From Sedimentisphaerales bacterium (lineage in GTDB: Bacteria; Planctomycetota; Phycisphaerae; Sedimentisphaerales; SM23-30), in NCBI GenBank assembly GCA_963666285.1, contig OY762711.1: a stretch of 64,000 bases of DNA; one strand, 5' to 3'. Below the pieces are notes generated by a model. The model was not told the origin of the DNA. It did not search any database and saw only the letters and a list, made by a program, of their open reading frames with translations. Shown here one piece after another: positions 30,509-44,583 of the stretch. Position numbers and translations under genes: made by a program. How positions within the stretch are numbered: the first letter of the stretch is position 1; every line of letters begins with the position of its first letter.

Positions 30509-30772
30509 ATGGATGAAGGTGCTGTATTAGATCTTGGCAGGCGAGTTTTGATACTTACACTGACGATCTCGTTTCCGATGCTGATAGTCGGGCTGGTTGT
30601 TGGTGTTACGATCTCGATCATCCAGGCGGTAACGCAGATCCAGGAAATGACGCTGACGTTTATTCCGAAGATATTCGCGATGTCGTTGGCATTGATATTT
30701 TTTATGCCCTGGATACTTAACCAGCTGACTAATTTTGCCTTGGAGATGTTTGGCCCGATGGCAGTGCCGTAG
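30509..30772 (+). CDS. fliQ: Export gate protein FliQ
   Basis: QAVTQIQEMTLTFIPK; ATG at 30509. Confidence 0.97.
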   Translation: MDEGAVLDLGRRVLILTLTISFPMLIVGLVVGVTISIIQAVTQIQEMTLTFIPKIFAMSLALIFFMPWILNQLTNFALEMFGPMAVP

Positions 30773-32200
30773 CCTTGCACCAGACCGCTGCGGAGGCAAC
30801 CAGACATAGTCTGGCTAGACCTTGCTTCGCTTGGTGACGAATTGAGATTGGAATGTTTAATGGGCGACTCATTCTGAGTCGCATAAGTTCAAAATACTTC
30901 GATATTCAGTTTTTCAAAGAGCAAAATTTATTTATTATTAAGACGTAATTTTCGTCGTTGTTAAGTTTTAGAGAGAGCTGATTTTTATTGGTTCTCTTTT
31001 TTTGTTAGCTCTCTACTATTGGATGGTATGTCGAAAGTGCGCTGATTTTTTGGGCGGGATGGTTGGTTTGGAAGTTTGTAAGGTGTTGGGAGTAAGCGGG
31101 ATAATAATTTTAAAGATTTTAGATTTTCGCGATTTGGTGGTTGTAAAAACGCGGTGATTTTTTCGAGAAAATCAGGGGCCAGGGATCTGGTTTCAGGTGT
31201 CAGGGAAGTGCTCGCTACCGCTCGCGGCTGATTGATGGGTGACGGGAGGTGTGCGGAAAGGTAACGGGTCAGCGCGGCGGGTGGACGGCGTTGAAAAGGG
31301 TAACGGATTTGAACGGAGGGGAATTGCGGGCCGCGGGCAGTATACGGAGGAACATCAAACAGGTACGGAAGCCCAAACACGGTGATGGAGCGGAGAAGCG
31401 GAAAACGCTTCTGAAGTATAAAGTATAAAAAATCAAGAGCTACCAGATAACAGCAGCGAGCGAGCAGCCAAGCTGCTAGAGATTAGAGCAGCTAAACAGC
31501 GGCGAGCAGCCAGCGGCCAGTGAAGAGGAAATACGTGCTTCGCACTCTGGCACATCATTGGATGAGTCCAATGATGTGAAGGTGTCGCTATGCGACCTGT
31601 TTTAAACGGGTTCGGCGAGGCTAATTGATTTATAAGTGAGAATGACGGGGTGAAAGAGGGGTAAAAAAACGGAATGAAATTGAAGAGTGCGGGGATGTTA
31701 TAACGGGTGCGGGAAGGATAACGGCGGGTTGGGGATTTTGCGGAAATTGGCGTAAGTTGTTATTTTTGGTTTGTGGGCAGACCAGATGCCGCGAAGCGGC
31801 ATCAAAGTGTAAAGGGTAAAATAAAAAGTGTAAAGGAGGTGTTCGCATTCGCGGACGGTTTGTTTTAAACGGCTAACGCCTAGCGACGGAGGTCGCTGGA
31901 TAGTTGATAGGTGAACAGCTAAATAGCAGTGAGCAATCAGCAATCAGCTGCGAGCTGTCAGGAAATACGTGCTGCGCGAACGGCCGAAGGTCGTTAGAGA
32001 TTAGAACAGATGACAGTGGAACAGTAGGAAGATAAAAACGTGCTGCGCACTAATGCAATGTTTGGTTGGCAAATGATATTGTTTGGGAGTAATATTTGGT
32101 TGCTCGCAGAGATCGCAAGGTTCGCAAAGTTAAAGATGTAAAAAATGTCAAGGATGTGTCCTGATTGACATCGGGACCATATTTAAAAGCTGACGTGGAA
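30773..32200. repeat. Non-coding cluster of short palindromes and reiterated motifs (REP/BIME-like)
   Basis: (GGA)AA(T/A)ACGTGCT(T/G)CGC at 31527, 31961 and 32034; TAGAGATTAGA(G/A)CAG at 31477 and 31995; TGTTTTAAACGG at 31598 and 31861; hairpins at 30864-82, 31551-78, 31584-96, 31785-803 and 31882-97. Confidence 0.7.
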
Positions 32201-32488
32201 GCGAGTTTATAGTGAAAAGTGGAGTTTGAGGGTGGGGAGGATTTGGGTATAATTTTTTTAAATTGAGTGTGAGGAAGTCTGGTGTTAGATGGCTGGCGTA
32301 AGTGGCGGAAGTATCGAAAGGTGTCGGAGGTTTTATTCTAAAAGTAGATTTTAGTCATGTTGTGCGGGAGTTTACCGGTATATTTTTGTTTCGTTATGCG
32401 TTCTGAATTTAGTAGAATAAAAGATGAGGTATTGGAGCAATTATACCAAGTGCCGGTTCCGGCATAAAATATTTGAAAGGTTCCTGCT

Positions 32489-34315
32489 ATGTTAATCTCC
32501 TGGGTAAAGAAATACTGGTGTGTGTTGTTTATTGTGTTGGTGCTGGTATTTGTTTCCGGTTTTGTCAATGCAGATTATGTGCCGGGTCATGTCCAGATAA
32601 CCTATTATGAAGGGCCGCGTACCTGTATAAAGTGCCATGAGAGCGAAGCGATGGAGATGTTGGATAGTGCACATTATCAGTGGTCGGGTGATACGCCGCA
32701 TGTGACGAATATATCCGGTAAGGCTGGTAAAGGAGATGTTGGTTTTAATACATATTGCGGTTCGGTGATAACCTCTCGGCGGCTAGCGTGCTGGTCGTGT
32801 CATGCCGGTTATGGTAAGACGCCGACGAATGAAATGACGCTGGGGCAGGTTAATAATATAGATTGCCTGGTATGTCATAGTGAGTCATATAAACGAAAAG
32901 CGGTGCCGCCGCATATGGAAGCAGATCTTAACCGGGACAGATATGTTGATATGACAGATTTCAGTCTAATGTCGATGGAGTGGCAGAACACCGGTTGCGA
33001 TGTGTTTACAGGGTGCAGTTATGCCGATCTGGCGGGTGACAGCAGAATAGATATAGTTGATCTGGGTTTGTTTGCGGCGGACTGGCTGGGCTGTACGGAT
33101 GTATCGGCAGGTTGTGATTATGAGTGGACGGAGAGTGTGACCTATACTGATTACCTGGGCGTAACGCGCAGTTGGGTGCTGCCGATCGAAAAAGAGAATG
33201 GCGATTTTGAATATGGCCCGGATGAAGATACGATGTCGGTTGGGATAGTTGAAGCGGCCCAGGGTGTGCATATGCCGACCCGCAGTACCTGTCTGAGCTG
33301 TCATGCATATGCAGCGGGCAGCGATTGCGGCAAGAGAGGCGACCTGGGGACGGGTTCGATTTCGCCGCCGTATAATGTTGATGTTCATATGTCGCCGGCG
33401 GGTGAGGATTTTGCATGCCAGAGATGCCATGAGACAGTAGGGCATAAGATGCTGGGCAGAGGCCTGGATCTGCGGCCGAGCGAACGTTCTGAGAAGATGA
33501 CCTGTTTGAGCGGCGGCTGTCATACATCTCGACCGCACGAAACTAATCAGCTGAATTATCATACTAGCAGAGTGGCATGTCAGACATGTCATATACCAAA
33601 ATTTGCTAAACTTAACAGTACGGAGATGGCACGCGATTGGGGTAACCCATATTGGGCACAGGGTATGTTCGGCGGCCAGGGCGGCTATAAGCCGGAAGAG
33701 ATTCGGGAGTCAAATGTTATGCCAACGTATAAGTGGTATGACGGCAGCAGTAAGGTTTATGCCTTGGGTCAGGTGCCGGCGCAGAATGCAGCCGGTCAGT
33801 ATGAGTTTGGTGTGCCGAACGGTGATGTGAGTTCTACCGGAGCCAGGATTTATCCGATGAAGGAGCATCTGTCAGAATCGGCAATGCATCTGGCGACGGG
33901 TGAGATAATTCCGCATTCGACGAGCGAATATTTCTTTACCGGCGATTTCGGTCGAGCGGTAGAAAAGGGCATGGAGCTGATGGGAATGGAAGGCGATTGG
34001 GAGCTGGTTTCGGTGCATACGTATCAAACGATTAATCATGGAGTTGAGCCGGATGATAATGCGTTGGCTTGCGGTCAGTGTCATAGCTCGTTGTCAGGCG
34101 GTCCGGTTCGGATGGACCTGGAGGGATTGGGGTATGTATTGAAGGACAGCCGGTCAACGGTGTGTTATCAATGTCATGGCAGCCAGGAGGCCAAACCGTT
34201 TAAGACCATACATGACATACATGTAAAGGATAAGAAATACGATTGTTCGTGGTGTCATGGCTTTAGCCGGCCGGAACGGAATTTGCTGGTGAGCCAGACT
34301 TCGCTAGAGCCATGA
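32489..34315 (+). CDS. Exported multiheme cytochrome c, octaheme tetrathionate reductase (Otr)-like, with dockerin insertion and two extra hemes
   Basis: Signal peptide; 9 CxxCH plus one CX4CH (CLSGGCH); Otr-like motifs CHAGYG, NIDCLVCH, DVHM and VACQTCHIP. Confidence 0.88.
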   Translation: MLISWVKKYWCVLFIVLVLVFVSGFVNADYVPGHVQITYYEGPRTCIKCHESEAMEMLDSAHYQWSGDTPHVTNISGKAGKGDVGFNTYCGSVITSRRLACWSCHAGYGKTPTNEMTLGQVNNIDCLVCHSESYKRKAVPPHMEADLNRDRYVDMTDFSLMSMEWQNTGCDVFTGCSYADLAGDSRIDIVDLGLFAADWLGCTDVSAGCDYEWTESVTYTDYLGVTRSWVLPIEKENGDFEYGPDEDTMSVGIVEAAQGVHMPTRSTCLSCHAYAAGSDCGKRGDLGTGSISPPYNVDVHMSPAGEDFACQRCHETVGHKMLGRGLDLRPSERSEKMTCLSGGCHTSRPHETNQLNYHTSRVACQTCHIPKFAKLNSTEMARDWGNPYWAQGMFGGQGGYKPEEIRESNVMPTYKWYDGSSKVYALGQVPAQNAAGQYEFGVPNGDVSSTGARIYPMKEHLSESAMHLATGEIIPHSTSEYFFTGDFGRAVEKGMELMGMEGDWELVSVHTYQTINHGVEPDDNALACGQCHSSLSGGPVRMDLEGLGYVLKDSRSTVCYQCHGSQEAKPFKTIHDIHVKDKKYDCSWCHGFSRPERNLLVSQTSLEP

Positions 34316-42866: not shown

Positions 42867-43394
42867 ATGAAAAACGAAAATAATAATCCAGAAAATGAAC
42901 TAATTGATTCCGGATTGGAAAAAGAACAGGTTCAGCAATTTTTCGATAATATGAAATATGTCGGCCAGGCCTTGGATGAACATCAGCCTGAGCCTTCATC
43001 AGGTTTCAATGATCGGATAAAAGCTGCAGTATATGCTGAGCTTGATTCGAATACCCGTTACTATTTTATTTCCCGTCACCATATCAGGACTATACTCGCA
43101 ACGGCTGCGATGCTGCTGGTAGTATTTAGTCTGGTGTTCTATCATATGGATCCTAAAGACAGCAAACCAGATGGTGGTACAGAAACAGGTGTAGTAGCGA
43201 GTGCCAATACTTCCGACAATCCATTTCTAGAACCGGATTTGATAATGGAAGTATTAATGGATCAGCAGGGCGCCAACAGTATTGACGGTATGACCCTGGA
43301 AGCAGTCTCCGCGATGTGGGGACAAGATAATCAGAACGATCAGGATAATTCATCCTCCTTTTGGAAAGGAAAGAACAATGAAAGCGTTGTATAA
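42867..43394 (+). CDS. Putative single-pass anti-sigma factor
   Basis: Follows the ECF gene; 'PSSGFNDRI', then an 'ATAAMLLVVF' TM helix. Confidence 0.7.
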   Translation: MKNENNNPENELIDSGLEKEQVQQFFDNMKYVGQALDEHQPEPSSGFNDRIKAAVYAELDSNTRYYFISRHHIRTILATAAMLLVVFSLVFYHMDPKDSKPDGGTETGVVASANTSDNPFLEPDLIMEVLMDQQGANSIDGMTLEAVSAMWGQDNQNDQDNSSSFWKGKNNESVV

Positions 43395-44583
43395 CATAAT
43401 TGCTATGGTTGCTTTAACAGCATTAACAGGAACAGTATTAGCCCAGGAATGTCCATATTCTGGAGGACAGCAGCAGGGCGGTCCACAGCAGGGTGTTTGC
43501 CCAAGTGAAGATTTAGCACCAGCTCCTGAATCAGAATTGCCGGGCGATCAAGGTTTTGGCCCGCGTCGCGGACAGGGAATGGGTAGAGGTAATGGTTTTG
43601 GCCAGGGACTTGGCAGAGGTAACGGTTTGGGCGAAGGTATGGGAATGGGTAGAGGTCAGGGTCGCGGTCAGGGCTTTGGCGGTCAGCAGATGGGCTTCGG
43701 TCCTCGCGGCGGCGAAGGCTTTGGTCCTGGAGAAGCTATGAAAGAAAGAGCTGAATGCAATGAATGCGAACAGGAAGCGGTTGCATCAGAACGCGGACAG
43801 GGCTTTAGACAAGGAATGGCACGCGGTTTTGCCAGAGGTCAGGGATCCGGTCGCGGCATGGGTATGATGCAGGGTCGTGGCCAGGGCAGAATGCAGGGTT
43901 ATGCTATGAGAGGCCGCGGACAGGGCTTTGGCGGTCAGCAGATGGGCTTTGGTCCTCGCGGCGGCGAAGGCTTTGGTCCTGGAGAAGCTATGAAAGAAAG
44001 AGCTGAATGCAATGAATGCGGACAGGAAGCGGTTGCACCAGAACGCGGACAGGGCTTTAGACAAGGAATGGCACGCGGTTTTGCCAGAGGTCAGAGATCC
44101 GGTCGCGGCATGGGTATGATGCAGGGTTGTGGCCAGGGCAGAATGCAGGGTTTTGCTATGAGAGGTCGCGGTCAGGGCTTTGGTGGTCAGCAGATGGGCT
44201 TTGGTCCTCGCGGCGGCGAAGGCTTTGGTCCTGGACAAGCTATGAAAGAAAGAGCTGAATGCAATGAATGCGGACAGGGCTTTAGACAAGGAATGGCACG
44301 CGGTTTTGCCAGAGGTCAGAGATCCGGTCGCGGTATGGGTATGATGCAGGGTTGCGGCCAAGGCAGAATGCAGGGGTTTGCTATGAGAGGCCGCGGACAG
44401 GGCTTTGGCGGTCAGCAGATGGGCTTCGGTCCTCGCGGCGGCGAAGGTTTTGGTCCGTCTCCTCTTGCAGATTGTCCGGAATTTGAAGGATGCCAGGATT
44501 TTGGCCTTCGCAGGAAAATGATGAATCGTGGTTGGGGCCAGGGAAATGGCTATAATCGCGGTTTTGGAAGAGCGATGAGATAG
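43378..44583 (+). CDS. Secreted Gly/Arg/Met-rich tandem-repeat protein with ECNEC motifs
   Basis: Sec signal ending VLA; 84-aa repeats; overlaps the upstream gene and has an RBS. Confidence 0.8.
   Translation: MKALYNIIAMVALTALTGTVLAQECPYSGGQQQGGPQQGVCPSEDLAPAPESELPGDQGFGPRRGQGMGRGNGFGQGLGRGNGLGEGMGMGRGQGRGQGFGGQQMGFGPRGGEGFGPGEAMKERAECNECEQEAVASERGQGFRQGMARGFARGQGSGRGMGMMQGRGQGRMQGYAMRGRGQGFGGQQMGFGPRGGEGFGPGEAMKERAECNECGQEAVAPERGQGFRQGMARGFARGQRSGRGMGMMQGCGQGRMQGFAMRGRGQGFGGQQMGFGPRGGEGFGPGQAMKERAECNECGQGFRQGMARGFARGQRSGRGMGMMQGCGQGRMQGFAMRGRGQGFGGQQMGFGPRGGEGFGPSPLADCPEFEGCQDFGLRRKMMNRGWGQGNGYNRGFGRAMR
43652..44455 (+). repeat. Intragenic near-identical tandem repeat, 252/252/225 bp
   Basis: cagggctttgg(c/t)ggtcagcag recurs at 43669, 43921, 44173 and 44398. 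Confidence 0.92.

Follow-up and report, generated by a model that had tools for sequence, protein, structure and literature searches.

Why should an apparently exported multihaem cytochrome of a Sedimentisphaerales bacterium carry a dockerin-like module in the middle of its redox core, and to what might it be docked? The window, a stretch of 64,000 nucleotides (G000:C1:448001-512000 in a 6.35-Mb genome), contains on its plus strand an open reading frame (32489-34315) for P0001, a 608-aa ten-haem cytochrome c resembling the octahaem tetrathionate/nitrite reductase (OTR). The protein starts with a predicted Sec-type signal peptide (aa 1-28; 32489-32572), as judged from the sequence and from an N-terminal helix in the structural model (aa 2-25), while neither a twin-arginine motif nor a lipobox was seen by eye in the N-terminus. 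Labels of homologues (Sedimentisphaeraceae, Sedimentisphaerales, and Sedimentisphaera) would place the genome in this order. The gene is solitary, with the end of a flagellar operon approximately 1.7 kb in front of it and a 900-aa open reading frame that converges on it from downstream, the names flagellar, for the operon, and pyruvate phosphate dikinase-like, for the neighbour, being presumptive ones read by eye from the sequences. The original prediction had noted that no quinol-oxidase partner is adjacent, which was borne out, and neither an outer-membrane conduit nor an electron donor linked to the gene was found at the locus. A search of the genome for MtrB/PioB porins gave no match, the control likewise being unmatched everywhere. 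The approximately 1.7 kb upstream of the gene (30772-32489) is without a convincing open reading frame; no tRNA was detected in it by a tRNA scan, and a promoter/terminator scan around the gene yielded nothing further. Elsewhere in the window, an exported 401-aa repeat protein rich in Gly, Gln, Met, and Arg is encoded at 43378-44583 (plus strand), downstream of a pair that by eye was named ECF sigma/anti-sigma-like.

The ten haem-binding motifs of P0001 consist of nine CxxCH sequences (aa 46, 101, 126, 268, 310, 364, 528, 559, and 586) and one CX4CH sequence, CLSGGCH, at aa 339 (haem 6), in agreement with the original prediction of a decahaem cytochrome. On the plus strand, motifs 1 to 3 lie at 32624-32878, together with K81 (32729-32731), C90 (32756-32758), and C101-H105; motifs 4 to 7, with D279 and K282, at 33290-33592; and motif 8, the final one common to OTR, at 34070-34084. 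Motifs 9 and 10 form a C-terminal two-haem extension (34139-34276), which also contains the conserved H575 and H578. The sole match of P0001 to a solved structure was the Shewanella OTR (1SP3, E=1e-55), in two alignment pieces that flank the insert. An AlphaFold2 model of P0001, built with 68 sequences (mean pLDDT 86.4), superimposed on 1SP3 with a Z of 27.8 and an rmsd of 3.5 Å over 397 aligned residues. The predicted OTR-like core was thus recovered by both approaches: The eight OTR haem motifs are in register in the alignment and in the model, and two more haems have been added. As both P0001 (268.5 bits) and all 24 relatives scanned, insert-free ones included (213-266 bits), score under the curated cut-off of 375 for TIGR04315, the group is, by profile score, a sister subfamily of OTR and not OTR proper.

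Haem II is the catalytic haem of OTR, and Cys64, Asp150, and Lys153 line the active site of that enzyme; no open paper listing the OTR distal residues was located. By alignment, the P0001 equivalents of OTR residues are K81 (Lys56), C90 (Cys64), C101-H105 (C74-H78), D279 (Asp150), K282 (Lys153), and R283 (His154). Among 124 close sequences (P0001-P0124), C90, K282, and R283 are present in all 124, position 279 is D or N in all 124, and K81 is found in 120. According to the part of the published description that was available, haem II of OTR is bound by C74-H78 and Lys56 (PMC3769277); K81 is the counterpart of this lysine and is predicted to act as a haem ligand. Nitrite, hydroxylamine, and tetrathionate are given as OTR substrates in the accessible portion of a second paper (PMC4484225). 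The substrate of P0001 may differ from these, since His154 of OTR is replaced by Arg in 124/124 sequences and the TIGR04315 score is below the cut-off. A second cysteine, C280 (33326-33328), is present beside the predicted active site, in the one loop that was modelled with low confidence; the position is Cys in 59 and Gly in 62 of the 124 relatives, and the residue could pair with C90 or be involved in the handling of a sulfur substrate. The same genome also encodes an NrfH-like and NrfA-like pair (PF03264 and PF02335; G000:C1:5548848-5550840, L134:5849-7838); most genes for the reduction of N-oxides are described as missing from the order.

Two features that had been singled out in the original prediction are present but turned out not to be peculiar to this protein. 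The haem 6 motif is CX4CH in 44 of the 124 relatives, CX2CH in 72, and CX3CH in 3 (5 were unparsed), so that the CX4CH sequence was rejected as a feature special to P0001 and is considered a family polymorphism. The two extra C-terminal CxxCH motifs (aa 559 and 586) are carried by insert-free relatives as well. Judged from these alignments, neither feature is tied to the insert.

As originally proposed, the linker that holds the insert runs from haem 3 (aa 126-130) to haem 4 (aa 268-272). This linker is 137 aa long in P0001 and 123-138 aa across the insert-bearing group, as opposed to 64-65 aa in insert-free relatives, which delimits an insert of 72 aa (aa 142-213; 32912-33127, plus strand). 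The two dockerin-type repeats expected at about 32921-33094 start at 32921 and 33023; each consists of a calcium loop and a helix, D146-W165 (32924-32983) and D180-W199 (33026-33085), both on the plus strand. They had been described as flanked by Cys; the residues concerned, C170, C176, C202, and C209, are located between the two repeats or behind them, with no Cys in front. The Pfam dockerin family PF00404 scored the insert at 21.2 bits in one scan and 24.6 bits in another, on either side of its gathering cut-off of 22.9. A profile made from the repeats of the same genome, with the query left out, matched aa 143-203 of P0001 with E=2e-16, and reversed open reading frames gave 0 matches. In the P0001 model, the insert forms a domain of its own with high confidence (pLDDT 92-96 for the blocks spanning the repeats), the best structural match of which is the dockerin 2Y3N_B (Z 8.8, rmsd 2.2 Å, 60 aligned residues); a dockerin fold is thus predicted for the insert by this model. 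All four Asp residues at positions 1 and 12 of the two loops (D146, D157, D180, and D191) are invariant in 32/32 insert-bearing sequences, which have an overall identity of 49-85 %, and W165 and W199 are near-invariant. The lack of decoy matches and the conservation in the family led us to reject a chance occurrence of the repeats. A frameshift or an assembly chimera as the origin of the insert was also ruled out, as there is one open frame and the insert recurs in 32 other database proteins. Taken together, the dockerin-bearing cytochrome is, at the level of the genes compared, real and conserved.

The closest matches of the insert are other modules of the same genome, with up to 44 % identity. 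An iterated profile of the genome's own repeats, from which the query was excluded, detected the module in 222 of 10,192 six-frame open reading frames and in none of the reversed ones. In these 222 carriers, the module is present only at the C-terminus in 143 cases and only internally in 58. A crude test for a hydrophobic N-terminal stretch was positive for 213/222 carriers, as compared to 1,044/2,259 of the other open reading frames of at least 300 aa. In a random sample of 39 of the 204 C1 carriers of up to 1,800 aa, 25 had Pfam matches (E<=1e-8): LamG domains in 10, followed by PASTA, GLUG, beta-helix, GH53, alpha-amylase, peptidase, and CBM families. No redox family was among the Pfam matches of these 25 proteins. 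None of the other six multihaem open reading frames of the genome carries the module, and a search for further proteins combining a dockerin with CxxCH motifs, as had been suggested, produced only one other carrier with even one CxxCH. On this sequence evidence, the module is a general handle of the host, ordinary for the lineage and used mostly on exported proteins of the lectin, glycan-acting, and protease types.

Two other carriers of a client-type dockerin deserve mention. L175 (G000:C1:28784-29494, minus strand) combines a signal peptide with a type VI secretion Hcp domain (PF05638, E=4e-26) and the module, such an exported and tagged form of Hcp being unusual. An exported, beta-rich 236-aa protein (G000:C1:2756947-2757657, minus strand), possibly a second adaptor of the kind described below, adjoins an open frame of 11,185 aa with dockerin matches.

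Among the 124 close relatives, 73 carry the module. Its site is the haem 3-4 loop in 33 of them, the C-terminus in 31, the haem 7-8 loop in 7, and the N-terminus in 1; in one more, a doubled protein of 1206 aa, the module was left unplaced. It is absent from the remaining 51. Irrespective of the tree, four positions in the aligned sequences imply at least four insertion or relocation events; because of these different positions, the module behaves, as far as the family alignment goes, as a mobile, position-independent handle of the host. A FastTree phylogeny of 126 core sequences had a weak backbone, in which the position classes were interleaved. In topology tests with 48 sequences, a single clade for all dockerin-bearing rows was rejected (AU 0.004), and one for the haem 3-4 class was rejected more weakly (AU 0.015, SH 0.051); in these tests a constrained tree beat the free tree, the search being poor, and no events were counted. 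Doubled or extended multihaem cores that carry a dockerin-like module are found in P0122 (1206 aa) and P0062 (880 aa).

A search of 301 genomes of the order gave 12 matches, 11 of which belong to the P0001 subfamily, the twelfth being of an eight-haem type. The insert is present in 11/11 subfamily copies, one of which is cut by a contig end within repeat 2 and one of which is frameshifted beside N bases. Neighbours with dockerin-like tails were observed at 6 of the 11 loci, four of which may be close kin. A class-wide sample revealed the subfamily in 2/250 other genomes, once with the insert and once without a dockerin; this latter Phycisphaerae copy (G191/L082) speaks against docking, as does a lack of repeat matches in the eight-haem OTR-like proteins of Phycisphaerae loci (0/10 among those listed). 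Insert-free relatives can bear other appendages, namely a choice-of-anchor U domain (P0028, over cut-off), a PKD domain (P0047), FG-GAP-like repeats, or a 125-aa tail, and N-terminal Ig/PKD stalks occur on more distant relatives from Proteobacteria. Each appendage might be the tag proper to its host, the taxa of which were mostly unlabelled. Many insert-free relatives have no appendage whatever, which also counts against the docking reading. A short (Y/F)LP-hydrophobic motif, presumably a Chloroflexota surface-protein motif, is located right behind the signal peptide of the insert-free proteins P0071, P0078, P0079, P0092, P0095, P0107, and P0112.

If the module is a ligand, a receptor should be encoded in the genome. 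The Pfam cohesin family PF00963 had no match there, its control being matched in 3/14 genomes, and seven Pfam-type cohesins of relatives, combined into a profile, gave none either (best E=0.36). Pfam cohesins were found in 5/121 genomes of the order, in two cases in proteins consisting of a signal peptide, a cohesin, and a PEP-CTERM sequence. The search for cohesins that had been proposed was thus negative at the level of Pfam, but a candidate with a cohesin fold was obtained by modelling. The genome has 97 PEP-CTERM-like open reading frames in 6.35 Mb and two exosortase-family genes, and a tandem duplicated pair at G000:C1:76127-79274 (L101:628-3775) consists of a gene for an exported 235-aa protein followed by one for a PEP-CTERM protein (P0267/P0268). 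In the exported proteins P0280/P0279 (G000:C1:76127-78604), a beta-sandwich is followed by a C-terminal dockerin; this dockerin belongs to another class and was missed by the client profile. When the P0280 model (pLDDT 92.7) was searched against 48,161 chains, ranks 1-15 were all cohesin-containing (Z 8.9-7.5), with the first non-cohesin at 7.5; over 114-133 residues, the rmsd to single-domain cohesins was 3.0-4.5, and the margin over other beta-sandwiches is moderate. The best Foldseek match was 2JH2 (E=7.6e-5). No Pfam family matched P0280 at E<=0.05, PF00963 included. A cohesin fold is therefore predicted for the P0280 model, albeit with a middling Z.

An order-specific profile of this adaptor domain matched two open reading frames in the genome, each with a single domain; no multi-cohesin scaffoldin was matched by PF00963 or by this profile, although other divergent cohesins are possible. 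The domain was detected in 105/121 genomes of the order (86/94 of the good-quality ones) and in 0/131 genomes from other orders of the class; homologues labelled Sedimentisphaera salicampi and S. cyanobacteriorum were among those found. Of the 22 adaptor loci examined, each 2-4 kb long, 18 contain a PEP-CTERM open reading frame, as compared to 97 such frames in the 6.35 Mb of this genome. In some relatives, the domains have been swapped: L106:412-1359, L121:1423-2010, and L126:925-1737 show an anchor-type domain joined to a dockerin or an adaptor-type domain joined to a PEP-CTERM sequence, and in L121:1423-2010 it is the cohesin-like domain itself that ends in PEP-CTERM. A language-model look-up of the PEP-CTERM protein domain returned only scores <0.9, two clusters having a minority cohesin label, and the signal peptide region was the only match between the family profiles of the adaptor and the PEP-CTERM protein. 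In its layout, the gene pair looks like an adaptor with its anchor, and the insert might bind to the P0280 domain. Complex prediction for the cohesin-like domain and the insert gave 0.12, 0.41, and 0.18 in three runs (median 0.18, mark 0.32), which weighs neither way. As the adaptor is near-universal in the order (105/121) and the cytochrome occurs in 11/301 genomes, their co-occurrence is uninformative.

We consider it probable, if not by a wide measure, that P0001 is an exported OTR-like reductase held at the cell envelope by calcium-dependent binding of its dockerin to a general, cohesin-type receptor. After Sec export, the haems would be attached in the periplasm; a CcsA-like WWD protein is encoded in the genome. 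The insert would then bind a cohesin of the P0280 type, a receptor shared with the other clients, while the dockerin of the adaptor itself would bind the PEP-CTERM protein, which in turn would be anchored by an exosortase. The docked enzyme would face either the periplasm or the outside. The Lys-ligated haem 2 may reduce a small nitrogen or sulfur oxyanion (tetrathionate, nitrite, or hydroxylamine, as in OTR), serving as an auxiliary electron sink for a fermenter, and haems 9 and 10 would lengthen the electron wire. An argument against docking is that two single-cohesin adaptors for more than 200 clients would need very high expression. A bolder extension, which we regard as doubtful for now, would have the entire order wear a two-tier coat, with a PEP-CTERM anchor, a cohesin-dockerin adaptor, and more than 200 clients, to which some lineages have added a catalytic ten-haem cytochrome, through the module in its loop, as an extracellular electron sink beside the glycan-degrading enzymes.

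The most serious rival, in our view nonetheless unlikely, sees in the module not a cohesin ligand but a tag by which a secretion machinery, such as a type II system, exports or sorts its cargo, so that the cytochrome would be released or surface-exposed. The exported appearance of the carriers, the predominance of C-terminal modules, and the lack of a Pfam cohesin would fit such a tag, and several GspD-type secretins were found over the cut-off in the genome. Terminal cleavable signals, however, are not found at two internal loops of a folded domain and at either end, as this module is, and a cohesin-fold protein does exist throughout the order.

That the module is a calcium-binding passenger or stabilizer spread by domain shuffling, and the cytochrome an ordinary soluble periplasmic OTR-like enzyme, seems quite improbable to us. 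Sequences at 49-85 % overall identity would not be expected to keep four Asp residues invariant and both Trp residues nearly so in a passenger, nor all copies of the order to retain it; the occurrence of four positions within one family fits selection for the presence of the module. In its favour are the very high copy number of the module, the 51/124 relatives that do without it, and the Shewanella enzyme, which is regarded as periplasmic in the portion of the account available (PMC4484225).

P0001 might also be docked without being a reductase of nitrogen or sulfur oxyanions, its haems serving as a non-catalytic wire in extracellular electron transfer, with metals, humics, or partner cells as the acceptors. 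The two added haems with their conserved His residues, the Ig/PKD stalks and anchors on relatives, and the NrfA/NrfH-like pair already at hand for nitrite would all agree with this, which we nevertheless judge to be distinctly improbable: Nearly all of the 124 relatives retain the counterparts of Lys56, Cys64, Asp150, and Lys153, as for a catalytic site, and the gene has no outer-membrane conduit linked to it. The strong form of the original prediction, a dedicated multi-protein electron-transfer scaffold built by the dockerin, is highly improbable, for although docking as such has gained from the predicted dockerin fold and the candidate cohesin-fold partner, and Limihaloglobus is reported to have dockerins joined to FAD/NAD-binding and HdrA-like domains (PMC11557425), the insert belongs to the common client class of more than 200 non-redox proteins, 0/6 other multihaem proteins and only one other CxxCH-bearing protein carry the module, and only single-domain cohesin-like proteins were found.

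The preferred reading, a reductase docked on a general receptor, would mean that cellulosome-style docking extends to a multihaem redox enzyme and that, after gene transfer, the docking handle of the host has repeatedly been added to the protein, even within a folded domain. What makes the case noteworthy is this repeated insertion into a catalytic multihaem family, together with a hidden, order-wide receptor candidate, which could serve hundreds of apparently orphan dockerins in the Sedimentisphaerales, an order with cultured members. The reading also suggests an additional route, respiratory or detoxifying, for bacteria that are described, in the part of the source available, as strictly fermentative (PMC11266412). 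In the open literature searched, supplements aside, neither a description of a dockerin-bearing OTR-like cytochrome nor a paper treating PEP-CTERM, cohesin, and dockerin together was found; annotation tables in supplements could mention such fusions.

Among known systems, the OTR of Shewanella oneidensis (SO4144; 1SP3, TIGR04315) resembles P0001 in its fold, in the order of its eight haem motifs, and in the positions of Lys56, Cys64, Asp150, and Lys153. P0001 differs from it by two extra C-terminal haems, a longer haem 3-4 linker with the insert, CX4CH at haem 6, Arg in place of His154, a structural identity of only 24-30 %, and a score under the family cut-off. With cellulosomal dockerins (PF00404), such as the type II dockerin 2Y3N_B of Bacteroides cellulosolvens, the insert shares the two calcium-loop/helix repeats; in contrast to these, it has the Trp-ended helices and Cys-containing linker typical of the 222 carriers and resides inside a redox domain, in a genome in which no multi-cohesin scaffoldin was found. 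Dockerin/cohesin proteins of ANME archaea (PMC9012536) are similar in that the dockerin is a general tag on exported non-cellulase proteins, e.g., ABC substrate-binding proteins; they are archaeal, include multi-cohesin proteins and, in the portion of the paper available, are not mentioned as fusions of a dockerin with a multihaem protein. Closest by lineage are the "planctosome", a non-cellulosomal cohesin-dockerin system proposed for freshwater Phycisphaerae of the Planctomycetota (PMC6461901), and the proteins of Limihaloglobus sulfuriphilus, in which dockerins are fused to FAD/NAD-binding and HdrA-like domains (PMC11557425); dockerins on redox-type domains in this order are thus already in print. 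The accessible parts of these two accounts make no mention of a multihaem client. As far as those parts go, both systems, from the same phylum or order, likewise have dockerins on non-cellulase domains, redox-type ones included, and rest on cohesins detectable by Pfam/InterPro, whereas the candidate adaptor described here is invisible to Pfam, nearly order-wide, and encoded beside a PEP-CTERM gene.
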